Positions 11,102 to 49,788 of a stretch of DNA of 64,000 nucleotides are shown here, one piece after another (positions within the stretch are counted from its first letter, which is position 1; every line of letters begins with the position of its first letter). Both the position numbers and the translations under genes were made by a program. The notes below the pieces were generated by a model. That model saw only the letters and a program-made list of their open reading frames with translations. It was not told the DNA's origin and did not search any database. Origin of the DNA: a bacterium (GTDB lineage: Bacteria > Patescibacteriota > Dojkabacteria > JAKAPS01 > JAJZLI01). Where the stretch lies: the NCBI GenBank assembly GCA_021846685.1, contig JAJZWL010000003.1:17700-81699 (forward strand), in the 5' to 3' direction.

Positions 11102-11174
11102 AGCCTAGAAGCGGATTTGAACCGCTGACCTTTCCCTTACCATGGGAATGCTCTACCTGCTAAGCTATCTAGGC
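11102..11174 (-). tRNA. tRNA-Thr (anticodon GGU)
   Basis: A clean cloverleaf: GCCTAGA acceptor, anticodon loop ATGGTAA, T-arm AGCGG-TTCAAAT-CCGCT. Confidence 0.88.
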
Positions 11175-11176
11175 TT

Positions 11177-11260
11177 TGCAGGGAGGAGGATTCGAACCTC
11201 CGTAGCCATATTGGCAACTGATTTACAGTCAGCCGCGATTGTCCACTCCGCCATCCCTGC
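11177..11260 (-). tRNA. tRNA-Tyr (anticodon GUA), long variable arm
   Basis: The 84-nt gene has acceptor GCAGGGA/TCCCTGC, anticodon loop CTGTAAA and T-arm GGAGG-TTCGAAT-CCTCC. Confidence 0.85.
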
Positions 11261-11273
11261 ACTAAACCTAGAT

Positions 11274-11346
11274 TAGCCTCCTGTCAGACTTGAACTGACG
11301 ACCTGCTGTTTACAAAACAGCTGCTCTACCACTGAGCTAAGAAGGC
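11274..11346 (-). tRNA. tRNA-Thr (anticodon UGU)
   Basis: Acceptor GCCTTCT, D-arm AGCTCAGTGGTAGAGC, anticodon loop TTTGTAA and T-arm GTCAG-TTCAAGT-CTGAC. Confidence 0.82.
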
Positions 11347-15581: not shown

Positions 15582-15589
15582 ATGTTATA

Positions 15590-16393
15590 ATGAAATCTAG
15601 AAACACACAAAAAATAAAGTTACTAAACGGTATTACCTGGCTTTTAATTGTCGATATATTTATATTTTTGATATCCATGAAATTTTATTTTGCATACAAT
15701 GTACTAGATCCATTGATTATTCCTGTAAAAAATTATACTTCTAATATATCTTCAAATGTGGGAAATTTTTTTATTACACTAGAGAATCTTAATAATGTTA
15801 GTAAGCAGAATATAATATTACAAGATAAGATCTATTTATATAAGTCAAAAATTAATTCTTTGGAAAATAATAAGTCTAAAACGCTTTCAATCAGTAATCA
15901 ATTAAAGGGTAATTATTTAAATAATAAATATAAATATATATATTCTCAAATAATGTATTATGGTACAAATAATACATTTGGATATACTTATTTAAACTCA
16001 GGAAGTGCTCAGGGTGTGAAATTAAATGATCCTGTGGTTTTTGAAAACTATCTTGTAGGGGTTGTATCTAAGGTATTTAATAATTATTCTAAAGTAATGT
16101 TAATTTCTAATTTAAATATTAATGTTCCTGTACTGATCAATAATACTAATGGTATATTAAAGGGGAGTCTATCTAGTTCTTTAACTGTTCAAGATATTAC
16201 TCAATTAAATAATATTTCTTTAGGGAATGTAGTAATAACCTCTGGATTAGATGGCACGTTCCCTAAAAACTTAATAGTTGGAAATGTAGAGCAGGTAAAA
16301 GGAAGTAAGAGCGGCCTTTTTAAAGATATTTCTGTAGCTCCTGCTATAAATATAAATAACCTAAAATATCTTTTTATATTAAAATATGAATAA
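15590..16393 (+). CDS. mreC: Rod shape-determining protein MreC
   Basis: An N-terminal TM helix is followed by a coiled coil and a beta-rich C-terminus (GLDGTFPKNLIVGNV). Its position after mreB supports the call. Confidence 0.7.
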   Translation: MKSRNTQKIKLLNGITWLLIVDIFIFLISMKFYFAYNVLDPLIIPVKNYTSNISSNVGNFFITLENLNNVSKQNIILQDKIYLYKSKINSLENNKSKTLSISNQLKGNYLNNKYKYIYSQIMYYGTNNTFGYTYLNSGSAQGVKLNDPVVFENYLVGVVSKVFNNYSKVMLISNLNINVPVLINNTNGILKGSLSSSLTVQDITQLNNISLGNVVITSGLDGTFPKNLIVGNVEQVKGSKSGLFKDISVAPAININNLKYLFILKYE

Positions 16394-16877
16394 AAAATTG
16401 ATAACCATATACATAGTTTATAGCATATTATTGATGCTATTTAGCAGTTCTTTTCTGAATGTGATATTTATATCTGTTTTATTCTTTAATATAATGTTTA
16501 TTTTGAATATAAAAGTATTTTTTGAAGAAAAAATGAGATCTATGTTATACATATATATATTTATATATGGTTTGATTTTCGATCTGTATTTATTTAAACC
16601 TTTAGGAGAAACAAGTTTTTTATTCTTATTGCCTTTATTAATCCTGTATTTTTACCCTAGTTTAAGATTGCGATCGATAGTCTATATTTCATCTAGTTTT
16701 ATATTTAATATATTATTATTAATATATATATTAGGACCTAATTTTATAGGCAAAATTTATAATAATTATATTTTAATATTATTTATTATTGTGATATTAG
16801 CTATAGAGAGCACAATAATAAAGGTTTTTATAAAAAGAAAGAAAATTTCGAAAAATATATATACCATTGATATTTAA
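16386..16877 (+). CDS. mreD: Rod shape-determining protein MreD
   Basis: A small polytopic membrane protein that overlaps the mreC stop. Confidence 0.6.
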   Translation: MNKKLITIYIVYSILLMLFSSSFLNVIFISVLFFNIMFILNIKVFFEEKMRSMLYIYIFIYGLIFDLYLFKPLGETSFLFLLPLLILYFYPSLRLRSIVYISSSFIFNILLLIYILGPNFIGKIYNNYILILFIIVILAIESTIIKVFIKRKKISKNIYTIDI

Positions 16878-16882
16878 GTAAA

Positions 16883-18748
16883 ATGAATAATTTTGAAATT
16901 GATGATTTAAATAGTCTCCCAGATGATGATAATCATAAGATTATTAATAATGAGTTATTATCTAAAATATATTCTTATTTAATATACTCTATATTCGCAT
17001 TCTTTATATTAGTCTTGATATACTTTTCCGTTATAGAGTTTAAGAAATATAATAAGTTGTCAATAAATAATAGATTAATAACTACTCCTATTATTGCTCC
17101 TAGAGGTGTAATTTTTTCTAGGAATATGACCCAGCTTTCGTACAATATTCCTACATTTAATTTATATATTAATACTCAAAATTTAAGTAAATCTCATCTA
17201 AAAACAGATATTAGTATACTTTCTAAAATATTAGCTATAAGTAGTAAAAAGATTACAAAAATTGTTCAAAGTGGACTGAAGTCTGGGTACGTAGAAATAC
17301 CTATTGAAACGGGGATAAGTAATAAGAATGAAATATTAATTTCTTCAAATAGTCATTTATATGGTGTCAGCTTTAAACAAACATCTTATGTTAAATTTCG
17401 TTACAATAATTTATTATCTCATATATTGGGTTATACTGGCCCAATAAGTGAGCAAGAATTACTAAATAATAAAAATATGAATCCTTATGATATAGTCGGA
17501 AGATATGGCATTGAAGAAAGTTTCAACAATTATTTAACGGGAAAAGATGGGTATCAAATTAATGAGGTAGATACTTATGGAAATGCAGTATCTAAGTTTG
17601 CAAAAGTAAATCCTATCCCAGGTAATAATATTCAACTTACAGTTAGTGCTACTATTCAAAAAAAATTACAGCAATTAATTATTCAAAATATTAAGCAGAA
17701 TCCTAATCATGTTACGGGAGCAGTAGGTATTGTTGAAAATATTAATACTGGAGGTATTCTAGCTATGGTGAGTTATCCCACATTTAATAATAATAATTTT
17801 GAAGGCTTAGGTATAAGTCAATCTCAATATTCAAAATTATTAAATAACCCTGATACTCCATTGTTAAATAGGGCTATATCTACTCAGCAACCTATTGGAT
17901 CTATAATGAAAACTATACTTTTGTCTGCTGGTTTACAGACTGGGGCTATAACAAAAAATACGACATTCTCAGTTCCTGGAACTTTTAATTATGATGGAAC
18001 AGTCTTTGAAAATTATGCAAGAATAAATTGGGGTGAAGCTAATATAGAAAAATGCTTACAGTATTCAATTAATGTTTTTGCATTTAAAGCTGCTTTGAAA
18101 ATAGGAATAGGTAATTTTGTTAAATATGAAAAACTTTTTGGGTTAGGGAAGCCTACAGGAATACAACTACCAGGAGAAAGTTCTGGGATCATCGCAAATC
18201 CTAAAACTAAATTACAATTAACAGGTCAACCTTGGTATCCTGGTGATTTATTAAATTCGGCAATAGGTCAAGGTTACACAGAAGTTACTCCAATTCAAGT
18301 TGCTAATTTTATAAGTGCTATTGCTAATGGTGGGAAATTAATGAGACCAAGGATTGTAAAAGCTATATATAATTATAAAGGAAATTTAGTAAAAAAATAT
18401 AATCCTACTGTCATTAGGTCAGGTTTTGTATCTTCAAAAAATCTAGATATTATAAAAACTGGAATGTATCTGGCTGTGCAGCATGGTATAGATATTGCAG
18501 CTCAAAGTACTATAGCTGATAATGCAGGAAAGAGTGGAACAGCTCAATTTGGACAAGAATCATATAATCCAAATCCTGCAGCTAATAGATATTTACATTC
18601 TCATTCTTGGATGTCTTCATTTGCTCCATATAATAAACCTCAGATAGCAATGGTAGTATTTGAAGAGAATGGAGGAGTCAGCACTTATTCTGCAGAGGTT
18701 GTAAAAAATTTCATGAACTGGTATTTTGGTACATATTTAAAACATTAA
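16883..18748 (+). CDS. mrdA: Penicillin-binding protein 2 (elongasome transpeptidase)
   Basis: A TM anchor is followed by a PBP dimer domain and a transpeptidase domain with SIMK (SxxK) and KSGT motifs. Confidence 0.85.
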   Translation: MNNFEIDDLNSLPDDDNHKIINNELLSKIYSYLIYSIFAFFILVLIYFSVIEFKKYNKLSINNRLITTPIIAPRGVIFSRNMTQLSYNIPTFNLYINTQNLSKSHLKTDISILSKILAISSKKITKIVQSGLKSGYVEIPIETGISNKNEILISSNSHLYGVSFKQTSYVKFRYNNLLSHILGYTGPISEQELLNNKNMNPYDIVGRYGIEESFNNYLTGKDGYQINEVDTYGNAVSKFAKVNPIPGNNIQLTVSATIQKKLQQLIIQNIKQNPNHVTGAVGIVENINTGGILAMVSYPTFNNNNFEGLGISQSQYSKLLNNPDTPLLNRAISTQQPIGSIMKTILLSAGLQTGAITKNTTFSVPGTFNYDGTVFENYARINWGEANIEKCLQYSINVFAFKAALKIGIGNFVKYEKLFGLGKPTGIQLPGESSGIIANPKTKLQLTGQPWYPGDLLNSAIGQGYTEVTPIQVANFISAIANGGKLMRPRIVKAIYNYKGNLVKKYNPTVIRSGFVSSKNLDIIKTGMYLAVQHGIDIAAQSTIADNAGKSGTAQFGQESYNPNPAANRYLHSHSWMSSFAPYNKPQIAMVVFEENGGVSTYSAEVVKNFMNWYFGTYLKH

Positions 18749-24735: not shown

Positions 24736-25176
24736 ATGTATAAAAAGTTACAAGAAGATTTAAAAGAAGCTATAAAAACAAAAGACAGAGATAGATTGTC
24801 TGTAATTAGGTTATTATCTTCTAAATTGAAAGATGAATCTATAAATTTGCATGTAAAAGAAATCAGTGATGATGTATTTTTTGATGTTTTGAAGAAATAT
24901 ATAAAACAAAATAAAGAGAATATTATAAATTATAATAATTTAAATAGAGAAGATTTGGCTAAAAAAGAAGAATATGAATTATCTATTTTAGAACTATATA
25001 TGCCAGTTCAACTCTCTGAAGATGAATTAATAGATATTATTAAAAAAGAAGTCAGTGGTATAGCAGATTTTTCTCAAAAAGATATAGGTGTAATCATTAA
25101 AAATATTACAGAAAAATATACAAATAGAGTAGATGGGAAAAGAATAAGTGATATTATTCGCAAATTATATTTATGA
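24736..25176 (+). CDS. GatB/YqeY-domain protein
   Basis: The family pattern is present, with the conserved rpsU-yqeY adjacency seen in Firmicutes-like genomes. Confidence 0.6.
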   Translation: MYKKLQEDLKEAIKTKDRDRLSVIRLLSSKLKDESINLHVKEISDDVFFDVLKKYIKQNKENIINYNNLNREDLAKKEEYELSILELYMPVQLSEDELIDIIKKEVSGIADFSQKDIGVIIKNITEKYTNRVDGKRISDIIRKLYL

Positions 25177-29528: not shown

Positions 29529-30752
29529 ATGAAAGTTAATTTAGATCCATTAAAAGGTTTTAATGATTATTATCCTGAAAAATATTTTGTCAAAAAATAT
29601 ATTATAGATATTTTGTCAGAGGTATCTAATTCATTTGGGTATTTATATTATGAGGGTCCTATTATCGAAGAAACACTTTTGTATGAAGTTAAGTCTGGGC
29701 AATCAATAGTAGAGGAGGCTTATTCTTTTATAGATAGAGGAGATAGAAGAGTGACTCTACGTCCTGAAATGACACCTACTTTAGCAAGAATGTTGGCTTC
29801 TAAGTCTGTTAATTATAAAAAACCTATTAGGTGGTATTCTATTCCTGTGTTATTTAGAAATGAGAATCCTCAGAAAGCTAGACAGAGAGAGTTTAGTCAA
29901 TATAATGTAGATATTATAGGCACTTCATCTAGCAAATCTGATATAGAAATTTTAGAAATTTCCATGAATATAATGCGAAAGTTAGGATTTAATGATGATG
30001 ATTTAGAAATATTAATTAATAACAGAGAGATTGCGTATAGAATATTAACTAAATATACTGATGATATAAATTCTCTTATTAAGGTAATAGATAAAAAAAA
30101 TAAGCTTTCAGAATCAGAATTTATTGATTTAGTAGGGAAAAATGTTAAAAATGTACATTATATTGATAAAATAATGACTTATTTAAATAATCCAGAAGAA
30201 GATATAGATGAAGAAATCACTAAATTTATAGGTGAAGCTTCTAAATTTAATTTAAATCTTATCTATGATCCTACAATAGTTAGAGGATTAGATTATTATA
30301 CGGGAAATGTTTTTGAAATTTGGGATAAGAAAAGATTAATTAAACGTGCTATATTTGGAGGAGGGAGATATTCTAATTTAATATCTACTTTGGGAGGAGA
30401 AAATGTAGATTCAGTAGGTATTGCTTGTGGAATTGAAGTATTAATACCTTTACTTGAAGCGTATGATAAACTTCCAAAATTAGATATTTCCTATGATTAT
30501 TTTGTTTCAACTTTTGAAAATATAGATGATAGTTTATATCATAATATTGTCTCTAAATTAAGGAGTAAAAATAATTCAGTTATATATAATGTTAATAATG
30601 ATTGGAATTTAAAAAAGCAACTGGAATATGCGTTAAGTATTAATGTTAAGAACTTTATTATATTAGGAGAAAAAGAGTTAGCAGATAATTCTATTTTAAT
30701 TAAAAATTTGGGGAAAAATACAGAGAATAAGATATTAATTAAAGATTTATGA
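29529..30752 (+). CDS. hisS: Histidyl-tRNA synthetase
   Basis: Class II motifs, LRPEMTPTLARM, RGLDYYTGNVFE and GGGRYS. Confidence 0.85.
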   Translation: MKVNLDPLKGFNDYYPEKYFVKKYIIDILSEVSNSFGYLYYEGPIIEETLLYEVKSGQSIVEEAYSFIDRGDRRVTLRPEMTPTLARMLASKSVNYKKPIRWYSIPVLFRNENPQKARQREFSQYNVDIIGTSSSKSDIEILEISMNIMRKLGFNDDDLEILINNREIAYRILTKYTDDINSLIKVIDKKNKLSESEFIDLVGKNVKNVHYIDKIMTYLNNPEEDIDEEITKFIGEASKFNLNLIYDPTIVRGLDYYTGNVFEIWDKKRLIKRAIFGGGRYSNLISTLGGENVDSVGIACGIEVLIPLLEAYDKLPKLDISYDYFVSTFENIDDSLYHNIVSKLRSKNNSVIYNVNNDWNLKKQLEYALSINVKNFIILGEKELADNSILIKNLGKNTENKILIKDL

Positions 30753-33207: not shown

Positions 33208-34582
33208 ATTGAATGACTCTTTTTCAAATATTAAAGATTTTAATCCAATAGAAAATAATAAAGTTAAGATTTATACTTGTGGTCCAACAGTACAAAGTTA
33301 TATCCACATCGGTAATCTTAGAGCTTATATTCTTTCTGACATATTAAAGAAATCTCTACAATATATTGGTTTTGAGATAGATGATGCAATGAATATTACA
33401 GATGTTGGTCATTTAACTACAGATGGAGATGAGGGGGAAGATAAATTAGAAAAAAAATCAAAAGAAGAAAATATTTCGATAAATAATATTATAGATAGGT
33501 ATACTAATTATTTTTATCAGACTATTGCCAGGATGAATGTGACTAAAACTTCAAAGATGTATAAAGCTTCGGAGACAATAGATACTCAAATCGAAATGAT
33601 TAAGATTTTAGAAAAAAAAGGATTTGCCTATAAAACTACTACTGGTGTTTATTTTGATATTTCTAAATTTAAAGATTATTCAGATCTTATTAATCAAAAA
33701 AGTAAAGACCAGAAAAAAGTTTCTAGAAATACTGTAGTTGAAGATAAGACAAAAAAGAATGCGCAAGATTTCAGGTTATGGCAAACGGCATACCCAGAGC
33801 ATATTATGCAATGGGATAGTCCTTGGGGAAGAGGTTTTCCAGGATGGCATATTGAATGTTCTGCTATTATTTATAAAGCATTAGGAGAAAATATAGATAT
33901 ACATACAGGAGGAATAGATCTCAGGAATACTCATCATGTTAATGAAATAGCTCAGAGTAAGTCTGCATTTGGGGGAGAGTTTGTTAATCATTGGATTCAT
34001 AACGGTATTGTATTAATAGATGGTGTGAAGATGTCTAAAAGTTTAAATAATATATATAAAATAGAAGATATTGAGAGTAAAGGGTATAATATTTTATCGT
34101 TAAGATATTTATATTTGAATGCTCATTATTCAATTCCTATCAATTTTACATTTGAATCTTTGAAATCTGCAGAGAATGCTTTAAATAGAATATATAATTT
34201 TATTAAAATTAATAAAAATCTTTATCAAAAAGACAGTGTCCCAAATGAAAAATACAAATTAAAATTTATTGAACAGATAGAAAATAATATAAATACTCCT
34301 GGAATGTTGGATGTGTTATGGGGTGTTATTCGGGATACTAAATTAGATATATCAGAGAAGTTAATTACTATATTAGATTTTGATAGGGTTTTATCTTTAG
34401 ATTTTGAGAAATATTTTAATATAGATATCCCTGAGGATATAATTGGTCTATTAAATAAAAGAAATATTTTAAGGAGCGATAAGCAGTGGAAAGAGTCTGA
34501 TGAGATAAGAGATGTAATTAATGAAAAGGGTTTTAGAATTATAGATTTAAAAGATAAATCTTTTGTAATAAAGAATGGATAA
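33191..34582 (+). CDS. cysS: Cysteinyl-tRNA synthetase
   Basis: CGPTVQSYIHIGN (HIGH motif), KMSKS, and the Cys-binding W..PWGRGFPGWHIEC. Confidence 0.88.
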   Translation: MSMTVRLNDSFSNIKDFNPIENNKVKIYTCGPTVQSYIHIGNLRAYILSDILKKSLQYIGFEIDDAMNITDVGHLTTDGDEGEDKLEKKSKEENISINNIIDRYTNYFYQTIARMNVTKTSKMYKASETIDTQIEMIKILEKKGFAYKTTTGVYFDISKFKDYSDLINQKSKDQKKVSRNTVVEDKTKKNAQDFRLWQTAYPEHIMQWDSPWGRGFPGWHIECSAIIYKALGENIDIHTGGIDLRNTHHVNEIAQSKSAFGGEFVNHWIHNGIVLIDGVKMSKSLNNIYKIEDIESKGYNILSLRYLYLNAHYSIPINFTFESLKSAENALNRIYNFIKINKNLYQKDSVPNEKYKLKFIEQIENNINTPGMLDVLWGVIRDTKLDISEKLITILDFDRVLSLDFEKYFNIDIPEDIIGLLNKRNILRSDKQWKESDEIRDVINEKGFRIIDLKDKSFVIKNG

Positions 34583-35912
34583 AAAAATTAAAGATAAAAT
34601 ATCTAAAGATATATATGACATTTCTTACACATTAAAATCTAAAGGTTTTAATGTGTATTTAGTAGGTGGATCAATAAGGGATATATTCCTTAATAAGGAT
34701 ATTGATGATTATGATTTAGCAACTGATGCTACTCCTGATCAGTTAAAAAAAATTTTTCCTAAAGCTATTTTATTTGGAGAAAAATTTGGAACAATAATGT
34801 TAATAATTGATAATAATAGAGTAGAAATTACTACACTTAGGAAAGAATCAGATTATGATGATGGGAGGCATCCATCTAAAGTTTCTTTTATTAAAGATAT
34901 AAATGAAGATTTAAAAAGGCGTGACTTTACCGTAAATGCAATAGCTTTTGATCTAATAAATTTTAATATTATAGATCTTTTTAATGGAGAAGGTGATATT
35001 ACAAAAAAAATAATAAGAGCAGTAGGAAATCCAGATGCAAGGTTTGAAGAAGATGCATTAAGATTATTGAGAGCAGTTAGATTTTCTCTAAAATTAGGAT
35101 TTAAAATAGAGCAGAATACATATAATTCAATTAAAAAGAATGCTCACTTGATTGAATTTATTTCTAAAGAAAGAGTAAGAGATGAATTTTTGAAAATTAT
35201 TTCTGGGGATAATTCATCAAAAGGTATAGAATTATTAAGAGAGACAGGACTTCTACAATACATAATGCCAGAATTGTTAGTATGTGTAGGTGTAATACAA
35301 AATAAATTTCACTCTTTAGATGTATATAATCACTTATTACTCTCAATGGACAAAGCTGATGAGAAAATTAAATTGGTAGCATTACTTCATGATATAGGAA
35401 AACCTCAAACAAAGGAGGGTGAACATTTTTTTGCACATGAAAAAGTTGGAGCTGATATTGCTAGAAATATATTGACTAGATTGAAATTCCCAAAAGAAGA
35501 GATATATATGACTTGTAAATTAATTCAATTGCATCTCTTTTTTTATAATGATAGCTGGTCAGATGGAGCAGTAAGAAGGTTTTTAAGAAAAGTGGAAGAT
35601 GATAAGTCTTTAGAATTATTATTTTTATTAAGGGAAGCTGACGAAAAAGGAAATCCTATATCAACTTATGATTTTAATAATTTAGAGAAATTAAAAAAAA
35701 GGATTCAAAAAATTAAAGAAAAAGATAGATTTATGAGTATAAAAGATTTAAAAATTAATGGTTATGATTTAATGAAAATTGGGTATCAAAAGGACAGATT
35801 TTTAGGAGAGACTTTAAATCTTTTATTAGATGCTATAATAGAAGATCCTAGTATAAATACCAAAGAAAGTTTATTGGCTATTGCTAAGGATAAATTAGAT
35901 CATTTTGTATAA
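34575..35912 (+). CDS. cca: CCA-adding tRNA nucleotidyltransferase with HD domain
   Basis: Pol-beta NTase head (GGSIRD..DYDLAT, RRDFTVNA) plus an HD motif (HD..K). Confidence 0.85.
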   Translation: MDKKIKDKISKDIYDISYTLKSKGFNVYLVGGSIRDIFLNKDIDDYDLATDATPDQLKKIFPKAILFGEKFGTIMLIIDNNRVEITTLRKESDYDDGRHPSKVSFIKDINEDLKRRDFTVNAIAFDLINFNIIDLFNGEGDITKKIIRAVGNPDARFEEDALRLLRAVRFSLKLGFKIEQNTYNSIKKNAHLIEFISKERVRDEFLKIISGDNSSKGIELLRETGLLQYIMPELLVCVGVIQNKFHSLDVYNHLLLSMDKADEKIKLVALLHDIGKPQTKEGEHFFAHEKVGADIARNILTRLKFPKEEIYMTCKLIQLHLFFYNDSWSDGAVRRFLRKVEDDKSLELLFLLREADEKGNPISTYDFNNLEKLKKRIQKIKEKDRFMSIKDLKINGYDLMKIGYQKDRFLGETLNLLLDAIIEDPSINTKESLLAIAKDKLDHFV

Positions 35913-36959: not shown

Positions 36960-37002
36960 GATTCATTCATTATTAATCTTTTAAGAATAGTATATTAATT
37001 AT

Positions 37003-37415
37003 TGGAGATGGTGGGAATCGAACCCACATCCATGAAGATATATGTATATATGGAATTACAAGTTTATCAATTTAATTTAAATTATCATTTTTATATTGAC
37101 AAATCTATGATAATTTTAATATTTAGAGAGTTATGTTTTCGTGTTATAGTCCAATATTAAGAACTAACAACCTTGAGCTTGATATTGTTTAAGCAAGATA
37201 AAACTTACAAGCATATGTCTCATCTTACTCTAAGTTTATTATGCTAAACTTAGATTGTATTGTGGAACAGCAAGTTTTGCTTTTAAATTAGCAAAAAATT
37301 CAGCCACTTTACTTTTTGTATTATTTACATTTATTGTTTTAATAATTTTTAAAAGATTATCAAACTTTACTTGCTATATATACATCTATTTTTCTTGTCA
37401 AAACCGGTCATCCCC
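37003..37415 (-). ncRNA. ssrA: Transfer-messenger RNA (tmRNA, SsrA), about 413 nt; not in the ORF track
   Basis: The minus strand begins GGGGAUGACCGGUUUUGACAAG, matching the tmRNA 5' consensus GGGGnUGA..GG.UUCGAC. It ends GGAUGUGGGUUCGAUUCCCACCAUCUCCA, a T-arm plus acceptor. The acceptor pairs with the 5' end through a G3:U70 wobble, the tRNA-Ala identity element. An internal frame ..AKLAVPQYNLSLA ends in tandem UAA UAA. Confidence 0.7.
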
Positions 37416-37507
37416 TAGTTTCTTAAGATTAATGTAAAAACGGATATATAAGTATATATTATATTATAAAAGGGCAAAATATAACAACTTTTAATTATAT
37501 CATAATT

Positions 37508-38104
37508 ATGGTAATCTTTCAATTAGGTATGTTTAATAATAAAAGTCATAAAGGGAGTATTAATTTGTTAAATAATATAGAAGAACCCAGGGATTCTTCT
37601 GAATTATTTTATACGTGGGTTGTGAATTATGGTAGATATATATTAATAGGTGTTGAAATTATAGTTATTATAGTTTTTGTATCAAAAATATTAGTTGACC
37701 AAGAGTATAATTATGCAATTTCCACATCATATAGTATGCAAAGCAAATTTAAATCAAAATCACTTCAGAACAAGGTGAATTTAATAACTAGTTATCAAAA
37801 TAAAATGAGTACAATTGTTGGTTTATCTCAAGTTAGGTTTAATTATGAATATACCCTAAATAAGATATTAACACTAATTCCTAAAGGAATTAGTGTGCAA
37901 TCAATAGATATTCAATATAATAATTTTAATATTGTAGGGGTTTCTAATAATTATAATTCATTACAAAAATTATTAGATAAATTTAAGTCAGACAGTAAAG
38001 ACTTTAGTAAAGTATATTTGCCATCTTTGTCTAATTCAGTTAATTTAAATCAAACTAATAATGTATCATTTTCTTTGTCTGGTAATATTAATTTAAAGCA
38101 TTAA
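37508..38104 (+). CDS. PilN-like type IV pilus assembly protein (candidate)
   Basis: An N-terminal INLL motif is followed by a single TM helix and a periplasmic domain of about 130 aa. The size and topology fit PilN. Confidence 0.35.
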   Translation: MVIFQLGMFNNKSHKGSINLLNNIEEPRDSSELFYTWVVNYGRYILIGVEIIVIIVFVSKILVDQEYNYAISTSYSMQSKFKSKSLQNKVNLITSYQNKMSTIVGLSQVRFNYEYTLNKILTLIPKGISVQSIDIQYNNFNIVGVSNNYNSLQKLLDKFKSDSKDFSKVYLPSLSNSVNLNQTNNVSFSLSGNINLKH

Positions 38105-38764
38105 TTGTATTTTATGGAGTATTTGAATATAAAAAAAACTAGGGATTATTTTACTACTAAATTTCAAAATAAAAGATATAGATTCTATTATTATTTGACT
38201 TTATCTTTAATAACTATATTAGTATTCATTGTATTTGCAATATATCCCACTATTAATCAAATATTTCAAGAATTAAATACAATTACTATAATTAATGGTC
38301 AAAATACGCAAATGCAAAGTAGATATAGTGAAATAAATAGTACTTATAGTCAATATAAAACTTTAGTTGTTCCGAATAAAGAGATATTTTCCAATTCACT
38401 TCCTAATAATAAGAATACTGGTTATATATTTGCTAATTTATATCAAATTATGAAAAATAATAATTTGAGTCTAAATACTATATCTTTTAATTCTTCTTCT
38501 CATTTATCAAGTATAGAACCTCTTTTCCCAATTGTTGCCAATAGTAGTTTAGGTATATTTAATATATCAATTTCTTCCTCAGGAACATATAACTCATATT
38601 TATCTTTTTTGTCGACATTATCTAAGTATCCTCAAAAAATATTAGTTTATAACTTATCTTTTTCACCAAATTCACAAAATTCTTCCGTTAATGGAGTTTC
38701 TGTGAGTAATTTGTTAAAAACTCAAGGAAGTGTAAGTTTTGAGGCGTTGGTATTTTATTATTAG
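38105..38764 (+). CDS. PilO-like bitopic membrane protein (candidate)
   Basis: An N-terminal TM helix is followed by a predicted coiled coil and an alpha/beta domain, and the gene is translationally coupled to the upstream gene. Confidence 0.3.
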   Translation: MYFMEYLNIKKTRDYFTTKFQNKRYRFYYYLTLSLITILVFIVFAIYPTINQIFQELNTITIINGQNTQMQSRYSEINSTYSQYKTLVVPNKEIFSNSLPNNKNTGYIFANLYQIMKNNNLSLNTISFNSSSHLSSIEPLFPIVANSSLGIFNISISSSGTYNSYLSFLSTLSKYPQKILVYNLSFSPNSQNSSVNGVSVSNLLKTQGSVSFEALVFYY

Positions 38765-38773
38765 TTAAAAAAT

Positions 38774-39019
38774 ATGAAAAAAGTATTAAGTATAGTAATT
38801 TTAACTTTTGTAGTAGTGTTATTGTGGATAGCATTTTCGATATATTCTATATATATAAAGAAAGAGTCACTAATTAATGTCCCTCAGTCATATATGCAAT
38901 CATTTAATACTCAAATGTATAGTTCTCAGTTTAAAATATTATTGAAAAATCAAAGTTATTTATGTGTGACTAAAGAGTTTAAATCAAAAAAATGTTTAAA
39001 TTCAAGTATTGTTAATTAA
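38774..39019 (+). CDS. Small single-pass membrane protein, hypothetical
   Basis: 81 aa with an N-terminal TM helix. It is the third gene of the same cluster. Confidence 0.3.
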   Translation: MKKVLSIVILTFVVVLLWIAFSIYSIYIKKESLINVPQSYMQSFNTQMYSSQFKILLKNQSYLCVTKEFKSKKCLNSSIVN

Positions 39020-39217: not shown

Positions 39218-42200
39218 ATGGATAGACTAAATCTTTCAACTATTTACCACGAAAATAATAAGATTTTTGATTACCCAGATTTAATAGAAGCACAAGTAAG
39301 ATCATATGATTTGTTCCTTGAGGAAAATATAAAATCTTTGTTTGATGAAATAAACCCAATTGTAGATAATACAGGGAAATTATGGGTTTTAGAATTTTTA
39401 GATTATAGATTTGGTGATATTACTAGATCTTCTAAAGAAGCTATTAGAAAGGGGTTAAGTTATGTAAGGCCTTTGTATTTTAATGTTGAATTAACTAATA
39501 AGGTTACTGGTGAAGTTAAGCAGCAAGAGTTGTTTATAGCTGAATTACCAATAATGACGGAATCTGGTAGTTTTATTATTAATGGTCATGAAAGAGTTGT
39601 AATTCATCAGATAGTTAGGGCAGAAGGTGTTTTGTTCACTGAAAATGGAAAAGCATTTAATAAGCAAAGGTTATATTCTGCAAAGCTAATAACTGCTATT
39701 GGTCCTTGGGTAACTTTTGAAGTTAACAAGCATAATGTAATGTCATTAAAATTTGCTCCTAGAAAGAATAAAATTTTAGTTACTACTTTATTAAGAGCTT
39801 TGGGGTATTCCACAAATTCAGATATTTTAAATTTATTTTCTGATGTAGATAATAATCAAGACAGGAAATTTATAGAATCAACTTTGGTTAAAGATCCTAC
39901 TCATAATCATACTGAAGCAGTATTGGAAATTTATAGAAAGATAAGACCTGATATCTCAGTTAATTATGATAATGCATTAGCTTATATTAACAGTTTGTTT
40001 TTTAATCCGAGAAAATTATATTTAGGAAAAACTGGAAGATATAAGTTAAATAAAAAATTAGGATTTGATAGACCTTTAGATAAAGATAATTATGTTTTAT
40101 TTAAGGAAGACATAGTAGCTATTGTAAAGAGATTGATAGAGGTAAGTAATGGAGTTATACCTGCAGATGATGTAGATTCTCTAAGTAACAGAAGGGTTAA
40201 GAGTGTTGGTGAATTATTATCAGATTATATTAGGGTTGGAGTAAGAAGAGTTGAAAAAATTGTTAAAGATAGGATGAGTATAATGTCTACTGATGAATTA
40301 TTAACTCCTTCTATGCTTATAAGTGCAAAACCTTTTGTTTCTGTTATTAATGAATTTTTTGGTAGTAGTGCTGTTTCTGTATCTATGGATCAAGCTAATG
40401 TACTAAGTGAGATTAGTAATAAAAGAAGAGTTACTGCTGGAGGTCCAGGTGGATTAACTAAAGAGAGTGCTACTTTCTCAGTTAGAGATATGCATTATTC
40501 TCAATATTCTAGATTATGTCCTGTTGAAACTCCTGAAGGACAACATATAGGTATAGTAAATCACTTAAGTATTTATGCAAGAATTAATGAATATGGATTT
40601 ATAGAAACTCCTTATGAAAAAGTCTTAAATACAGTTTCTTTTGATTCAAATAAGCTTTTAAATAGAATTTTAAGGGCTGACTTGAAGGTAGGGAATAAGG
40701 CATATAAATCTGGGGATGTAATTAATTCTGATTTATCAAAAGTAATTATAAAGGATAAATTAAAAGATATATTGGTATTACCATATCTTTCTGGAGATAT
40801 AGAATATTTTGATGCAGATGAAGAATTTAATTTTATTATTGCTAGTTTGAATACTAAAATAGATTCTCATGGGAATATATTAGATAATATATTAGAAATT
40901 AGATCTAAAGGAGATTACTCTTTGGGCACATCTACAAGTATTAATTATATCGAGGTTTCGACTACTCAAATAGGAGGAGTTTCTTTAAATTTGATACCTT
41001 TTGCTGCAGGTAATAAAGCAGATAGAACTTTAATGGGATCTAATATGCAAAAGCAGGCAGTGCCTTTGCTTACTCCAGAAGCTCCAATCATAGGAACTGG
41101 AGTAGAAGGTATTGTTGCTCAAAATTCTCATAGGTCATATTTTGCTAAAGATGATGGAGTAGTAGAGTATGCTGATTCTAAAAGGATTAGTGTTCAATAT
41201 AAAAATAAAAATTCTGATAAAGAAACTTATTTTGCAGACAAATTTATACCTACTAATAAATCAACTTCTTTTTCTCAAAAGGTAATTTTGAATAAAGGAA
41301 CTAGTTTTAAAAAGGGAGATGTATTAGTTGATGGTCCTAGTATAAGTAATGGAGAATTAGCTCTAGGTAAGAATTTATTAGTTGGATATATGATGTATGA
41401 AGGTTATAATTATGAAGATGGAATTGTAATTTCAGAAAGGTTAGTTAAAGAAGATGTATTGACCTCTGTACACGTTAAATGTTATACGCACGATATAAAA
41501 GAGACTAGATTGGGTCCTGAAATGACAACTAGGGATATCCCTAATGTATCGTTAACTTCTTTAAAAGATTTGGATGAAAATGGAATCGTTAGATTAGGTG
41601 CTTATGTAGAGTCAGGAAGTATTCTTGTTGGTATAGTAGCACCTAAGGGTGAAGTAGAACTTACTGCAGAAGAAAAATTATTAAGATCTATATTTGGAGA
41701 TATAGCTAAGGATGTTAGGGATAATTCATTGAGAGTTCCTAATGGTGAATCTGGAGTTATAACAGATATTGAGATACTAGAGAGAGAAGATGATTCTAAT
41801 AAATTATCACCAGGTGTCATAAAGCAAATTAAAGTATGGGTTGCTAGAACTCATAAGATAGGATTAGGTGATAAATTATCAGGAAGATTTGGAGATAAAG
41901 GTGTAATATCAAAAATACTTCCAGTAGAGGATATGCCTTATTTAGAAGATGGTACACCTTTAGATATATTGCTTTCTCCTTCTAGTATAACTAGAAGATT
42001 AAATTTTGGGCAATTGCATGAAATACATTATAGTAAGATTGCAAAAAAAATTGGAAAAAATTTAGCATTTCCTATTTTTTCTCAAATTGATGAAAATAAA
42101 TTAGAAAATCTTTTAAAAGATAATAATATTAAACCAGAAGATATTGAGGATAAAGTCTCTTTGTATGATGGTAGAGATGGTTCTAAGTTCCAAAATAAAA

Positions 42201-42721
42201 TTACTGTAGGTCAAAGGTATATACTAGTATTAGATCATTTGGCAGATTCAAAAGTTCATGCAAGATCTACAGGTAGTTATACTGTGGTTAATCAACAACC
42301 ATTGGGTGGTAAGTCAAATATGGGAGGTATGAGATTCGGGGAAATGGAAGTATGGGCATTAGAAGCTTATGGAGCTGCATATACACTTCAAGAAATGTTA
42401 TCTATAAAGTCAGATGACATAATAGGAAGATCTGAAGCATACAAATCGATTATTCATAATAGAAAGATACAAATGGTCGGAATTCCTGAGTCATTTAAGG
42501 TATTGCTATCAGAATTAAAGTCTCTGTGTTTAAATATAGAGCCTACTGAAGTAATCATAGATAATATCTCAGAAGAGGAATCAAATATTCCTGAAGATGT
42601 CATGATTGAAGAAGGTGTTATAGTGACAGAGGATAATGGGAATGATATTGTAGAGAATGTTATGGTAGGTAGTGATCCTGCTGTATTAGAAGAAAATGAG
42701 AATAGTATTGAGTCAAATTAA
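39218..42721 (+). CDS. rpoB: DNA-directed RNA polymerase subunit beta
   Basis: 1167 aa with conserved beta-subunit blocks throughout (..GPGGLTKESA..RDMHYS.., NMQKQAVP). Confidence 0.95.
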   Translation: MDRLNLSTIYHENNKIFDYPDLIEAQVRSYDLFLEENIKSLFDEINPIVDNTGKLWVLEFLDYRFGDITRSSKEAIRKGLSYVRPLYFNVELTNKVTGEVKQQELFIAELPIMTESGSFIINGHERVVIHQIVRAEGVLFTENGKAFNKQRLYSAKLITAIGPWVTFEVNKHNVMSLKFAPRKNKILVTTLLRALGYSTNSDILNLFSDVDNNQDRKFIESTLVKDPTHNHTEAVLEIYRKIRPDISVNYDNALAYINSLFFNPRKLYLGKTGRYKLNKKLGFDRPLDKDNYVLFKEDIVAIVKRLIEVSNGVIPADDVDSLSNRRVKSVGELLSDYIRVGVRRVEKIVKDRMSIMSTDELLTPSMLISAKPFVSVINEFFGSSAVSVSMDQANVLSEISNKRRVTAGGPGGLTKESATFSVRDMHYSQYSRLCPVETPEGQHIGIVNHLSIYARINEYGFIETPYEKVLNTVSFDSNKLLNRILRADLKVGNKAYKSGDVINSDLSKVIIKDKLKDILVLPYLSGDIEYFDADEEFNFIIASLNTKIDSHGNILDNILEIRSKGDYSLGTSTSINYIEVSTTQIGGVSLNLIPFAAGNKADRTLMGSNMQKQAVPLLTPEAPIIGTGVEGIVAQNSHRSYFAKDDGVVEYADSKRISVQYKNKNSDKETYFADKFIPTNKSTSFSQKVILNKGTSFKKGDVLVDGPSISNGELALGKNLLVGYMMYEGYNYEDGIVISERLVKEDVLTSVHVKCYTHDIKETRLGPEMTTRDIPNVSLTSLKDLDENGIVRLGAYVESGSILVGIVAPKGEVELTAEEKLLRSIFGDIAKDVRDNSLRVPNGESGVITDIEILEREDDSNKLSPGVIKQIKVWVARTHKIGLGDKLSGRFGDKGVISKILPVEDMPYLEDGTPLDILLSPSSITRRLNFGQLHEIHYSKIAKKIGKNLAFPIFSQIDENKLENLLKDNNIKPEDIEDKVSLYDGRDGSKFQNKITVGQRYILVLDHLADSKVHARSTGSYTVVNQQPLGGKSNMGGMRFGEMEVWALEAYGAAYTLQEMLSIKSDDIIGRSEAYKSIIHNRKIQMVGIPESFKVLLSELKSLCLNIEPTEVIIDNISEEESNIPEDVMIEEGVIVTEDNGNDIVENVMVGSDPAVLEENENSIESN

Positions 42722-42739
42722 TTATTTTATTTATTATAT

Positions 42740-45700
42740 TTGTATATGTTAAAAGATTTTAAAGCACTAAAGATAACCTTAGCTTCACCTTCACAAATTT
42801 TAGATTGGTCTCATGGTGAGGTTAAGAAGGCAGAAACAATTAATTATAGAACTCAAAGATCCGAGGTAGGGGGATTGATGTGTGAGAAGATTTTTGGTCC
42901 AACCAAGAATTATGAATGTTATTGTGGTAAATATAAAAAAATAAGATATAAAGGTATTATATGTGATAAATGTGGAGTTGAAGTCACTACACGAAATGTT
43001 AGAAGGGAGAGATTAGGGCATATTAAATTAGCATCTCCAATAACTCATATTTGGTTTGTTCATGAAGTGCCTAATAAATTATCTTTATTATTAGATATTC
43101 CTCAAAAAAAACTTATTTCTGTAGTTTATTTTTCTAGATATATTATCTTATCAGTAGATTCTGAAAAAAAGAAAGAAGCAATTGATGTCGTTAAGGAAAA
43201 GATATCTGTAGCTGAATCTGAATATAATAAAGATTTAAAAGATAAAATAAAGATTCTAAATGAAGAGCAGGACAAGGAATTAAAAACTAAAAGATCTGAA
43301 CTTAAAAAAGAGGGGATGGATAATGAATCTATAGATCTCCAAATTGAAAAGCAGAATTTTAAATTTAGACAACAAGTTGCTAGATTAAAAGAGGTAGAAT
43401 CATCAGCATTTGAAGAAATTTCTAAAGAGAATGATAATCTTTTAGAATTAGTAAAGAAAATTAATGTTGGTGAAGTGATATCAGAAGAAGAATATGGGAC
43501 TTTATTAGATAATAATTTAGAATTTTATGAATTAGATATGGGTTCTGAGTCAATTAGAAAATTGTTGTCGAATTTAGATCTAGATACACTTTCTAAAGAG
43601 TTGTATAAAGATATTAATTCTAAATCTGCTCAAAGGAGAGTTAGGGTAATTCAAAGATTAAAAATAATAGAAGGATTTAGAAAGAATAATATGAAACCAG
43701 AGTGGATGGTATTAGATGTTATTCCTGTTATTCCACCTGATTTGAGACCTATTATTCAACTATCTGGAGGTAAATTTGCAACATCTGATCTTAATGATTT
43801 ATACAGAAGAGTTATTAATAGAAACAATAGATTAAAAAAATTAATGGATTTAGGAGCTCCAGAGGTTATTTTGAGAAATGAAAAAAGAATGTTACAAGAG
43901 AGTGTAGATGCGTTGTTTGATAATCAGCATAGACCTTCTGCACCTGTAGTAAACTCTAGGAGAATCCCATATAAGTCTTTATCTGATAATATAAGAGGAA
44001 AATATGGAAGATTTAGAGGTAATCTTTTAGGTAAAAGAGTAGATTATTCAGGTAGAGCTGTAATTACTAGTGGTCCTGAATTATCATTGACTCAATGTGG
44101 TCTTCCTAAAAAAATGGCTTTAGAATTATTTAGACCTTTTGTTATGAGAGAAATCCTCTATAGAGGAATTTCACCTAATATTAAGAGTGCGAAAGTATTA
44201 TTTGAAAGTGCAACTCCTGAAGTATGGGATATTTTAGAAGAAATAATCAAAGATAGACCTGTACTTTTAAATAGAGCTCCTACTTTGCATAAGCAAGGAA
44301 TTCAAGGATTCTTTCCAATACTTATTGAAGGAGATGCTATTCAATTACATCCTTTAGTTTGTGAAGGATTTAATGCTGATTTCGATGGAGATGCAATGAC
44401 AGTTCATGTGCCATTATCTGAAAGTGCAATAGAAGAAGTTATAAATCTTACAATGACAGACAGTAATTTATTTTTAGCTTCTGATGCTACTCCTATAGTT
44501 ACTTTGAAAAAAGATATGGTTTATGGTTGTTATTATGTAACCTCTATTGAAAAAGTAAATTTGGATAAGGTTTTTTCATCCTCAGAAGATTTATTATCAG
44601 CATACAATAAAGGTATAATTTCTTTAAGGGAGTTAGTTAAGGTTAGAATAGATGGTAAATTAATAGATTCTTCAGTAGGTAGAATTATTTTTAACCAATC
44701 TTTGCATGGAAGTGTTCCTGAGTTTATAAATGATTCAGTAAATGACAAAATCATAACTGATATTGTTGTAAATGCAGTTGATTCAATTGGGAAAAAAGAA
44801 ACATTATTGATGTTAGATGATCTTAAGAGTTTAGGATTTAAATATGCATTAAAATCAGATTTTTCTATTTCAATTGAAGATTGTCAAATGTTGCCTAATA
44901 AAGATGATTTAATTTTAGGAGCAGATAAGGAAATTGAAAAAATTGCAGATAGTTTTAAAGAAGGATTAATAACTAAAAAAGAAAGAGTACAATTATCTAC
45001 TGATGTATGGAAGGGTGTTACTGACGATATTGCAGAAAAATCTTTAAATAATCTTAAAGAAGGGAATTTATTTAAAACTATTGTTGATAATAAATTTATG
45101 GGTGCTAATATTGATCAATTAAAGCAAATTATAGGAATGAAAGGTTTAGTGCTTGATCCTAATGGAAATATAATTGAATTACCTATAAAATCAAATTATG
45201 TTGATGGTCTGAGTGTTTTTGAATATTTAGTTGAAGCTAGATCTTCTCGAAAAGGTTTGGCAGATGTAGCTTTGAGAACTTCAAATACAGGATATTTAAC
45301 TAGAAAAATGGTAGATGTATCTCATGATGTAATCATAAGATTAGAAGATTGTAATAATTTTGGAGAAGGATATATTTTATCTAAAAATGAAGATAGAAAA
45401 TTAAATTTTGAATCAAGAATATATGGAAGAGTTATATCTGAAGATGTGAAAAATAAAAAAGGTGAAATTTTCTACTCTACTAATACTATTATTGATAGAA
45501 AGTTAGCTAAAGAGATAAATAATAATAAAGAAATAGAATCGATTACAGTTAGAACTCCTTTAACTTGTGGAGCTCAATATGGTATTTGTGCTATGTGTTA
45601 TGGATATGATATTAGTGAAAATGAATTAGTTAAAGTAGGGAAGGCAGTAGGAGTTATTGCTGCTCAATCTTTAGGACAAAAAGGATCTCAACTAACTTTA

Positions 45701-46615
45701 AACTCAAAACATTTATCTGGTATTGTTGGAGGAGTAGATATGTCTAGAGGTGCTCCTAGGATAGAGGAACTTTTAGAGGCTAGAATTCCAAAAGGAGAAG
45801 CAAAAATTGCTGATATAGATGGAGTAGTTAAAATTGAAAATATCAATAATGTTGTAAAACTAAAAATAGTATCTGAAAATAATATAGGAAAAGATTATAT
45901 TTTAGTTAAAGGAGACGTTCCTGCATTTGAAGGAGAAAAGAAAGTTAATCCGGGCAATTTATTATTTGTAAGTAAAGATGGAACTCAAGTAGTATCTCCA
46001 TTTAAAGGTCTTGCAAAAATAGAAGACGGTAAAGTTTATGTAGAAAGTACAAAATCTTTGGAAGTAGAATATACATTTGATCCTGAAGATATTATATTGG
46101 TATCTGATGGAGAAAAGATTAAAGTAGGAACATTATTAACTAAAGGTAATATAGATCCTAATGTTTTACTTAAAGCAGTAGGTATTCATAAAGCTCAAAA
46201 ATATATTATTGATAATTTATTGGATACTTATGAAAGTCAAGGTATTAGTGTTTATGATAAACATATTGAGATTTTAGTTTCTCAAATGGGAAGATATGTA
46301 AAAGTTCTAGATCCAGGGGATAGTGATGTGTTACCAGGCTCTTATAAAGATATATTTTTTATTAATGAAGAAAATAAGCATTTAAAAGATAAGAATTTGA
46401 AAGAAATAAAATTTGAAAGAAAATTATCAGGGATAACCTCAGCAGCATTGCATACTGAAAGTTTTCTTTCAGCAGCTTCTTTCCAAGAACAGGTTAGAGT
46501 TCTTTCAGAAGCAGCAATTTCAGGTAAAACTGATTATTTGCGTGGTTTGAAAGAAAATGTTATCATTGGACGTAAAATCCCAGTGGGGGATGAAGCTAGA
46601 TTAGTTAATGGATAA
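42740..46615 (+). CDS. rpoC: DNA-directed RNA polymerase subunit beta'
   Basis: 1291 aa with a zinc finger (CYCGKY..C..C), the NADFDGD catalytic motif and the trigger loop region. Confidence 0.95.
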   Translation: MYMLKDFKALKITLASPSQILDWSHGEVKKAETINYRTQRSEVGGLMCEKIFGPTKNYECYCGKYKKIRYKGIICDKCGVEVTTRNVRRERLGHIKLASPITHIWFVHEVPNKLSLLLDIPQKKLISVVYFSRYIILSVDSEKKKEAIDVVKEKISVAESEYNKDLKDKIKILNEEQDKELKTKRSELKKEGMDNESIDLQIEKQNFKFRQQVARLKEVESSAFEEISKENDNLLELVKKINVGEVISEEEYGTLLDNNLEFYELDMGSESIRKLLSNLDLDTLSKELYKDINSKSAQRRVRVIQRLKIIEGFRKNNMKPEWMVLDVIPVIPPDLRPIIQLSGGKFATSDLNDLYRRVINRNNRLKKLMDLGAPEVILRNEKRMLQESVDALFDNQHRPSAPVVNSRRIPYKSLSDNIRGKYGRFRGNLLGKRVDYSGRAVITSGPELSLTQCGLPKKMALELFRPFVMREILYRGISPNIKSAKVLFESATPEVWDILEEIIKDRPVLLNRAPTLHKQGIQGFFPILIEGDAIQLHPLVCEGFNADFDGDAMTVHVPLSESAIEEVINLTMTDSNLFLASDATPIVTLKKDMVYGCYYVTSIEKVNLDKVFSSSEDLLSAYNKGIISLRELVKVRIDGKLIDSSVGRIIFNQSLHGSVPEFINDSVNDKIITDIVVNAVDSIGKKETLLMLDDLKSLGFKYALKSDFSISIEDCQMLPNKDDLILGADKEIEKIADSFKEGLITKKERVQLSTDVWKGVTDDIAEKSLNNLKEGNLFKTIVDNKFMGANIDQLKQIIGMKGLVLDPNGNIIELPIKSNYVDGLSVFEYLVEARSSRKGLADVALRTSNTGYLTRKMVDVSHDVIIRLEDCNNFGEGYILSKNEDRKLNFESRIYGRVISEDVKNKKGEIFYSTNTIIDRKLAKEINNNKEIESITVRTPLTCGAQYGICAMCYGYDISENELVKVGKAVGVIAAQSLGQKGSQLTLNSKHLSGIVGGVDMSRGAPRIEELLEARIPKGEAKIADIDGVVKIENINNVVKLKIVSENNIGKDYILVKGDVPAFEGEKKVNPGNLLFVSKDGTQVVSPFKGLAKIEDGKVYVESTKSLEVEYTFDPEDIILVSDGEKIKVGTLLTKGNIDPNVLLKAVGIHKAQKYIIDNLLDTYESQGISVYDKHIEILVSQMGRYVKVLDPGDSDVLPGSYKDIFFINEENKHLKDKNLKEIKFERKLSGITSAALHTESFLSAASFQEQVRVLSEAAISGKTDYLRGLKENVIIGRKIPVGDEARLVNG

Positions 46616-49670: not shown

Positions 49671-49681
49671 GGAGAAATTAT

Positions 49682-49765
49682 GCCGGGATGGCGGAATTGG
49701 TAGACGCACAGGACTCAAAATCCTGCGAGGATTTCCTCATGAGGGTCCGAGTCCCTCTCTCGGTA
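49682..49765 (+). tRNA. tRNA-Leu (anticodon CAA), class II with long variable arm
   Basis: Acceptor GCCGGGA, D-arm TGGCGGAATTGGTAGACGC, anticodon loop CTCAAAA, variable stem GAGGA/TCCTC and T-arm GAGGG-TCCGAGT-CCCTC. The acceptor stem needs two G-U pairs and the T-loop is atypical (C55). Confidence 0.78.
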
Positions 49766-49788
49766 ATTATTTAAAAGTCATTAATGTT

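Follow-up and report, generated by a model that had tools for sequence, protein, structure and literature searches.

The tag and length of transfer-messenger RNA (tmRNA, SsrA) differ between well-known bacteria: the E. coli RNA is 363 nucleotides (nt) long, the tag of Helicobacter pylori is short (~14 residues) and ends in ...AKAA, and Mycoplasma tags end in ...YAFA. The H. pylori tag probably starts with VNNT..., a string that does not occur in the main text of the paper on the resume codon of this species. That codon has been established as GUA (Val) and is essential in vivo (PMC2584231). The reading frame of the E. coli tag is fixed by the conserved A86, four nt upstream, in the context U85-A86-G-U-C directly before GCA, and the resume codon lies 11–12 nt past the first pseudoknot, PK1 (PMC2481249). 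Catalogued resume codons other than Ala are Gly, Asp, Arg, Ser and Glu, mRNA-like domains range from 48 to 126 nt and whole tmRNAs from 250 to 425 nt (PMC1168896). The tag comprises 11 residues in E. coli and 27 in Mycoplasma pneumoniae, which lacks ClpXP; there the extended tag is rich in hydrophobic and aromatic residues, is recognised by Lon and has evolved together with this protease (PMC8403727). Here we describe a tmRNA gene (ssrA) on the minus strand, positions 37003–37415, of a 64,000-nt stretch of contig JAJZWL010000003.1 (assembly GCA_021846685.1), referred to below as the window. The gene very probably encodes a functional one-piece tmRNA, the sole copy of an uncultured bacterium of the Patescibacteria (Candidate Phyla Radiation, CPR), with GUA as resume codon and a tag of 29 codons.

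The window tmRNA shares with E. coli SsrA a tRNA-Ala-like domain with G3:U pair, the T-arm, the discriminator A, helix 2, PK1 and U-A at positions −5/−4 before the resume codon, as well as a stop codon in the loop of helix 5, three further pseudoknots and an uncharged tag C-terminus ending in Ala. It differs from E. coli SsrA in being longer (413 nt, inside the published range), in its tag of 29 codons rather than 11 residues (PMC8403727), in GUA (Val) instead of GCA (Ala), in the end ...NLSLA instead of ...YALAA, in its GC content of 26% and in that CCA is not encoded. GUA is shared with H. pylori, an unrelated member of the Campylobacterota with a ClpXP system. The genome-reduced, AT-rich host and the unusually long tag recall Mycoplasma and Mesoplasma SsrA, but the tags themselves are not similar in sequence. 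Overall, the window gene adds one more ordinary tmRNA to a family found in nearly all bacteria. Precedents exist for its long tag, for Val as resume codon and for the CCA that is not encoded, and the tag with its 29 codons, Val as first codon and ...LSLA end is only mildly unusual.

Identification of the gene

ARAGORN called a tmRNA at exactly 37003–37415 on the minus strand, with the tag VNNTKSKVAEFFANLKAKLAVPQYNLSLA followed by two stops. Rfam model RF00023 matched with 63 bits (gathering score 47 bits; E = 3.2e-22 for the whole 64-kb window) and was covered over model positions 1–374 of 374, and no other Rfam family matched over the tmRNA region. The 5' end on the minus strand reads GGGGAUGACCGGUUUUGACAAG and the 3' end GUGGGUUCGAUUCCCACCAUCUCCA. 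An earlier note, made by reading the sequence, had placed a tmRNA at this position, with GGGGAUGACCGGUUUUGACAAG at the 5' end and the T-arm GUGGG-UUCGAUU-CCCAC followed by CAUCUCC-A at the 3' end, seven of seven acceptor pairs with G3:U as the sole wobble, and an internal frame ...AEFFANLKAKLAVPQYNLSLA closing in UAA UAA. Each of these elements is present in the sequence. The two model searches that the note had proposed, ARAGORN and RF00023, agree with each other and with the comparative covariation described below, and folding, also proposed there, yields both the tRNA-like domain and PK1. The note had further called the tmRNA 'unannotated', a word that carries no biological weight because default tools detect the gene above threshold; work on tRNA introns in Patescibacteria routinely detects tmRNAs with the same tools (PMC13011429).

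Structure and covariation

The full structure of the window tmRNA including its pseudoknots was projected onto an alignment of nine tmRNAs, namely the window and eight syntenic relatives (L087–L094) with YchF proteins 54–80% identical to that of the window (54–100% over all nine), and pairs were counted; alignments in which the partners were slid by 1–3 columns and 500 shuffles served as controls. In the nine sequences, 88.9% of cells are paired compared to 40–46% in the slid controls, a percentage that is biased upward, as the window sequence itself was the source of the structure. Compensatory changes are free of that bias: 35 pairs have changed on both sides, compared to 7–16 in the slid controls. 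None of the 500 shuffles reached the observed pairing values. RNAalifold on the nine tmRNAs gave a consensus with 23 compensated pairs that contains the acceptor stem, helix 2, the T-arm and some of the downstream elements, among them stem b of pseudoknot 3 (PK3).

The G3:U pair, the entire acceptor stem (7 pairs) and the T-arm (5 pairs) are invariant in all nine sequences. Good covariation is seen in PK4, PK2, stem b of PK1 and helix 2 (16 pairs, 93–100% of cells paired, 5 pairs changed on both sides). Among the downstream pseudoknots, PK2 and PK4 have strong support and PK3 moderate support. When each sequence was searched separately, the crossing helices of PK1 were found independently in 9/9. 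A search for perfect stems located the helix 5 (H5) hairpin enclosing the stop codon in all nine and the downstream crossing helices in eight, the anchor having failed in L088. Taken together, the RNA has the canonical one-piece tmRNA architecture (Table 1).

Resume codon and tag frame

The earlier note held that the resume codon cannot be fixed by eye. By comparison it can be fixed: ARAGORN, the Rfam alignment and the invariant A at −4 all point to GUA (Val) at 37328–37326. All nine sequences carry A-(U/C)-A-A-A-U directly before G(U/C)A, with U or C at −5, and a relative, L091, has GCA (Ala) at the resume position. In the window tmRNA, PK1 ends 10 nt before GUA, which is close to the 11–12 nt of E. 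coli, and GUA occupies the position of the Rfam consensus resume codon (GCa). ARAGORN also starts the tag at GUA in the window and in most relatives.

Read from this shared site, all nine sequences encode related tags of 26–30 residues, e.g. VNNTKSKVAEFFANLKAKLAVPQYNLSLA in the window, VNNIKSKVSEFVGNLKSTFTPQYNLSLA in L087, VNNIKSKVSAFVDNLKTAFVSPSYNLNLA in L088, VNNIKSKVSAVVNAIFAKPAFYLNVA in L089, ANKVKNFVSNAVAQIRTTLFSQPALNLNIA in L091, VERIRNYVGNIKDAITKFVSVPALNLSIA in L092 and VERIKNYVGNIKDAITTFVSQPALNLSVV in L093. Counting the Ala borne by the tmRNA itself, 30 residues would be appended in the window bacterium. Across the nine sequences, differences at third codon positions of the tag frame are ~1.7x as frequent as at first or second ones, roughly half of the codons that differ by one nucleotide are synonymous, and codon 9 switches between TCA and AGC with Ser preserved. 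In codons 1–8 of the closest clade, six sites vary, five of them at the third position (hypergeometric P = 0.007). The pattern argues that the tag frame evolves like coding sequence. A tandem UAA UAA closes the frame in the window and L087 only; the other relatives have a single UAA. The frame given in the earlier note, AEFFANLKAKLAVPQYNLSLA (21 aa, AEFF...LSLA), had its ending right but was eight residues too short, VNNTKSKV being added at its start.

That shorter frame represents an alternative according to which the tmRNA is real but translation resumes further downstream at a GCU or GCA Ala codon, giving the tag AEFFANLKAKLAVPQYNLSLA, ANLKAKLAVPQYNLSLA or AKLAVPQYNLSLA. Ala is by far the commonest resume codon (PMC1168896), several in-frame GCN codons lie within the window tag, and the tags that ARAGORN gives for four relatives are short and begin with Ala (AKPAFYLNVA in L089, L090 and L094; AITKFVSVPALNLSIA in L092). 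However, these short tags are best regarded as mis-starts, because the frame upstream of them is conserved as coding and the internal Ala codons do not keep their positions across the relatives. The upstream stretch VNN(I/T)KSKV(S/A) is conserved at the protein level with mostly third-position changes, the invariant A-x-A-A-A-U with A at −4 is found only before GUA, and PK1 spacing and the Rfam consensus single out the same codon. In addition, a GUA resume codon is not without example, as it has been demonstrated experimentally in H. pylori. We therefore consider a downstream start unlikely.

Several observations weigh against a functional tmRNA resuming at GUA and should be kept in mind. The RF00023 score exceeds the threshold by just 16 bits, although such a margin is normal for DNA of 26% GC. 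The alignment is poor in PK3 and in the inner part of H5, where 44–78% of cells are paired, a weakness that is partly due to alignment quality. The tag frame is open for 6–23 codons upstream of GUA, and because no upstream stop bounds it, the start rests on comparative and positional arguments; the conservation of the first codons could partly reflect a constraint at the RNA level. Finally, SmpB was not found in the 64-kb window, either by a Pfam survey or by tblastn with an E. coli SmpB query (best E = 0.3).

Table 1. Coordinates of the tmRNA gene, its domains and associated features in the window
Feature	Position	Strand	Details
Mature tmRNA (ssrA)	37003–37415	−	413 nt, G1 to discriminator A413; ARAGORN, Rfam, sequence
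Acceptor stem, 5' strand GGGGAUG (H1)	37409–37415	−	holds G3 of G3:U; 7/7 pairs
D-loop-like segment GGUUUUGAC	37397–37405	−	G11, G12, U15, U16, G17, A18 and C19 invariant in alignment
Helix 2, 5' strand	37369–37385	−	tmRNA 31–47; pairs with 37042–37063
PK1	37339–37368	−	tmRNA 48–77; stem a 48–51/61–64, stem b 53–59/71–77; in stem b 4 pairs changed on both sides
Frame-setting upstream AUAAAU (−6 to −1)	37329–37334	−	−6 and −4 to −1 invariant in 9/9; A at −4
Tag frame	37236–37328	−	resume GUA 37328–37326, 29 sense codons = VNNTKSKVAEFFANLKAKLAVPQYNLSLA, UAA UAA 37241–37236
Helix 5 hairpin UCUAAGUUU / AAACUUAGA	37229–37254	−	first UAA stop in loop; outer part 84% paired, inner part less well aligned
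PK2	37177–37228	−	tmRNA 188–239; helices 89% and 93% paired, 3 and 2 pairs changed on both sides
PK3	37116–37171	−	tmRNA 245–300; helices 70% and 78% paired, 4 pairs each changed on both sides; least supported domain
PK4	37064–37115	−	tmRNA 301–352; helices 96% paired, 8/9 and 3/8 pairs changed on both sides
Helix 2, 3' strand	37042–37063	−	tmRNA 353–374
T-arm GUGGG-UUCGAUU-CCCAC	37011–37027	−	5/5 pairs invariant; T-loop UUCGAUU; Rfam alignment
Acceptor stem, 3' strand CAUCUCC and discriminator A	37003–37010	−	CAUCUCC 37010–37004, A 37003
Candidate sigma-70-like promoters	37458–37522	−	TTGAAA-17-TG-TATAAT 37522–37494; TTGTTA-18-TATAAT 37487–37458; consensus scan
cca, CCA tRNA nucleotidyltransferase	34575–35912	+	NCBIfam PRK13299, 305.6 bits vs cutoff 290; Pfam PolyA_pol and HD
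Antisense ORF, 60 aa	37255–37437	+	overlaps 5' half of tmRNA; spurious

Tag ending and tag diversity

The C-terminal motif P-x-(Y/F/L)-(N/Y)-L-(S/N)-(L/I/V)-A is kept across the relatives, with L093 ending in ...LSVV. The earlier note had seen in ..LSLA a hint of a divergent degradation tag; the ending is indeed genuine and is conserved throughout this lineage, but like other tag ends it is hydrophobic and without charge, and thus no more than a variant. The possibility that the central part of the tag forms an amphipathic helix was considered and dropped, since 8–39% of shuffles matched its hydrophobic moment.

A scan of metagenomes with the 29-nt pattern of the T-arm/acceptor 3' end returned eight loci, none of which belongs to the window clade; they comprised other tmRNAs, one permuted tmRNA and two tRNA-Ala genes, the latter (L095, L099) matching from inside dense tRNA arrays. 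Other tmRNAs with the identical 29-nt 3' end are located at L096 1181–1507, L098 3171–3541, L101 4816–5185 and L102 1437–1839. Three of them (L098, L101, L102), from groundwater and lake metagenomes, are one-piece tmRNAs of the Patescibacteria type with tags of 17–23 residues. They differ from the window tmRNA in their unrelated tags (ANSKSYAPSYKYALAYS; AKLKNYASMFGNMQFAYARPAFA), an Ala resume codon and another genomic context. The tags at the four loci include ANSKSYAPSY(K/Q)YALAYS, which ends in Ser, AKLKNYASMFGNMQFAYARPAFA, 23 aa long, and ANDNFFDNVAIAA in a permuted tmRNA of two pieces. Because tmRNAs of apparent Patescibacteria with the same 3' end have quite different tags, tag diversity within this phylum looks high.

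Genomic setting and relatives

The window has a GC content of ~26%. On one side, ssrA is flanked by cysS-cca-ychF and on the other by a gene for a PilN-like protein, two unknown open reading frames (ORFs) and rpoB-rpoC. An identical YchF with the same locus occurs on 12 metagenomic contigs, including the NCBI metagenome-assembled genome GCA_027424875.1, and all six copies of this locus that were examined have the same tmRNA tag. The relatives were reached via homologs of the YchF protein and the contigs encoding them. Homologs of 80% to 54% identity led to eight further loci with the gene order ychF, ssrA, pilN-like, and in 8/8 ARAGORN found a tmRNA on the minus strand in the gap between ychF and the pilN-like gene. 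Two of these graded homologs are named 'Patescibacteria group bacterium' by NCBI. At 49–50% identity (L103, L104), neither ARAGORN nor Rfam detected a tmRNA in the syntenic gap. Since the tmRNA is present there at 54–80% YchF identity and absent at 49–50%, the ychF-ssrA-pilN-like arrangement characterises one clade of Patescibacteria. A YchF scan of genome contigs gave 80 loci of just 41–47% identity (Gracilibacteria, Peribacteria and many Proteobacteria), none of them a close relative because YchF is too conserved.

Some details vary between these loci. In L104 (11089–12004) and L103 (8760–10001), gene-free gaps of 0.9–1.2 kb lie beside ychF without a match to tmRNA, tRNA or Rfam. A gene for a beta-CASP/metallo-beta-lactamase (RNase J-like) protein lies between cca and ychF in L089, L090, L091, L094 (~8600–9994) and L104 (8529–9989) and is absent from the window, L087, L088, L092 and L093. 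In L091 (13204–16677), rpoB is called as two ORFs (605 and 550 aa) where the others have one ORF of ~1160 aa; a frameshift, a misassembly or a real split of the gene could explain this. In L093, a 3.4-kb insertion (4777–8186) separates ychF from the 3' end of ssrA and carries genes for AbiEii, an unknown protein of 200 aa, a HicB-like antitoxin and two MazE-like antitoxins. That this insertion is an island integrated at ssrA could not be established, as there is neither an integrase nor a duplicate of the tmRNA 3' end; its only repeat is an exact one of 17 nt (4848–4864 / 8645–8661) within the AbiEii ORF.

tmRNA genes are known integration targets, and together with the L093 insertion beside the ssrA 3' end and the modest Rfam score this raises the question whether the window gene is a decaying or mobile-element-borne extra copy, i.e. 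a pseudogene or the remnant of an island or phage attachment site. We regard this as very improbable. The gene has its full length and lacks none of the domains, it occupies the same place between the housekeeping genes cysS-cca-ychF and rpoB-rpoC in nine genomes, its compensatory changes and coding signature mean that it is under purifying selection, and its surroundings in the window contain neither another tmRNA nor an integrase nor an att-like copy of the 3' end.

That the region instead holds a protein gene on the plus strand and resembles a tmRNA by coincidence has a negligible probability: mechanical ORFs of 60 aa (37255–37437) and 52 aa (37002–37160) exist and similar small ORFs are annotated in some related contigs, but neither has a Pfam match, the called ORFs vary in position and length and are absent from most relatives, and the tmRNA model match (E 3e-22) and RNA-type covariation account for the conservation. 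The earlier note had already dismissed the ORF call at 37255–37437 as spurious, and it is indeed not kept as a called gene among the relatives.

Maturation and expression

The 3' CCA of the tmRNA is not encoded (...CUCCA is followed by AUA). It is encoded in five relatives and is missing from the gene in the window and in three others. None of the six tRNA genes of the window (6133–6208, 10837–11346, 49681–49766) encodes CCA either. The gene of the CCA-adding enzyme, cca, lies two genes from ssrA, and this proximity is kept across the clade. CCA addition to the window tmRNA is expected. Since neither the six tRNA genes nor the tmRNA encode CCA, its addition would be a genome-wide requirement and the CCA-adding enzyme must, as judged from the gene sequences, be essential.

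The candidate promoters (Table 1) lie 43–79 nt upstream of the mature 5' end, in AT-rich DNA in which the consensus scan gave 14 matches compared to 8.5 expected. Either candidate would leave a leader of ~35–70 nt for removal by RNase P. The only terminator-like hairpin of the region (37579–37600, minus strand; a 9-bp stem followed by a T-run) is situated inside the plus-strand PilN-like ORF, upstream of the ssrA promoter candidates, and no gene on the minus strand would use it.

Proposed pathway and protease

By homology with studied tmRNAs, the precursor would be trimmed and CCA added by the enzyme encoded two genes away, after which alanyl-tRNA synthetase would charge the tmRNA with Ala via G3:U. 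With SmpB and EF-Tu, the charged RNA would bind a ribosome that has stalled on a non-stop mRNA and whose A site is empty, and the nascent chain would be transferred onto the tmRNA-borne Ala. Translation would then resume at GUA, four nt past the invariant A and 10 nt past PK1, and proceed through 29 codons to the UAA that helix 5 exposes in its loop. Proteins released in this way would carry the C-terminus A-VNNTKSKVAEFFANLKAKLAVPQYNLSLA, marking them for an ATP-dependent protease. The sequence analysis shows the identity of the RNA, its covarying structure, the place and coding character of the tag frame and the absence of an encoded CCA; charging, partnership with SmpB, tagging in vivo and the reading of the tag by a particular protease are inferred. 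In H. pylori, a mutant affected in the interaction of SsrA with SmpB was altered in the triplet G19 A20 C21 (PMC2584231); the GAC of GGUUUUGAC is the counterpart of this triplet and may contact SmpB here.

A search of the 64-kb window for ClpX, ClpP, Lon and FtsH found none of them. The window starts inside the gene of a two-ring Hsp100 protein (ClpB/ClpA/ClpC-like), whose C-terminal part is encoded at 2–883; the fragment matches ClpB best (301 bits), followed by ClpA (268 bits), and not ClpX. This Hsp100 could bear on the handling of tagged proteins. The Lon-specific tag of Mycoplasma is the best functional analogy for how a tag might come to be longer, and a protease switch in the window clade is hypothetical. 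More specifically, a family-level clade could have evolved a tag of ~30 residues with its own C-terminal degron and a conserved N-terminal block (VNNIKSKVS / VERIKNYVG) because it uses a protease or adaptor other than ClpXP/SspB; we regard this as possible but rather doubtful. If true, it would be a second, independent case of co-evolution of tag and protease after Mycoplasma (Lon), now in genome-reduced CPR bacteria.

In the literature library searched, no paper mentions tmRNA, SmpB and Patescibacteria together. Beyond annotation, the significance of the gene is small, as tmRNA is nearly universal in bacteria and default pipelines find the window copy. What is gained is that two spurious ORF calls are removed, that the tag frame of the clade is fixed where ARAGORN alone starts inconsistently, and that a conserved tag of 26–30 residues with a Val resume codon is documented in Patescibacteria. 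The tag also offers a defined degron, with which the AAA+ protease that deals with rescued proteins in these reduced, episymbiotic bacteria could be sought.

Genetic code and other features of the window

Gracilibacteria are among the top YchF matches and TGA is rare in the window, and a reassignment of UGA (code 4 or 25) was considered and rejected: there is no in-frame TGA in 19,327 codons. Of the 58 genes of the window (for example 24736–25176 and 29529–30752), 46 end in TAA, 10 in TAG and two in TGA, both of the latter in ATGA overlaps with the start of the next gene. The bacterium uses the standard code 11, unlike Gracilibacteria, Absconditabacteria and Mollicutes with their recoded UGA.

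Two MreB paralogs, MreC and a PBP2-type transpeptidase are encoded at 3602–4612 (minus strand) and 14523–18748 (plus strand), giving a full rod-shape system in a small-genome member of the Patescibacteria; the assignment of a 163-aa protein at the expected MreD position is a guess from gene order without a family match. The nusG-L11-L1-L10-L7/L12-rpoB-rpoC cluster is split into three pieces, with L10-L7/L12 at 1298–2232 (plus strand), nusG-L11-L1 at 8903–10587 (minus strand) and rpoB-rpoC at 39218–46615 (plus strand). In the last piece, rpoB is preceded by the PilN-like gene and the two unknown ORFs, which are conserved (37508–39019).

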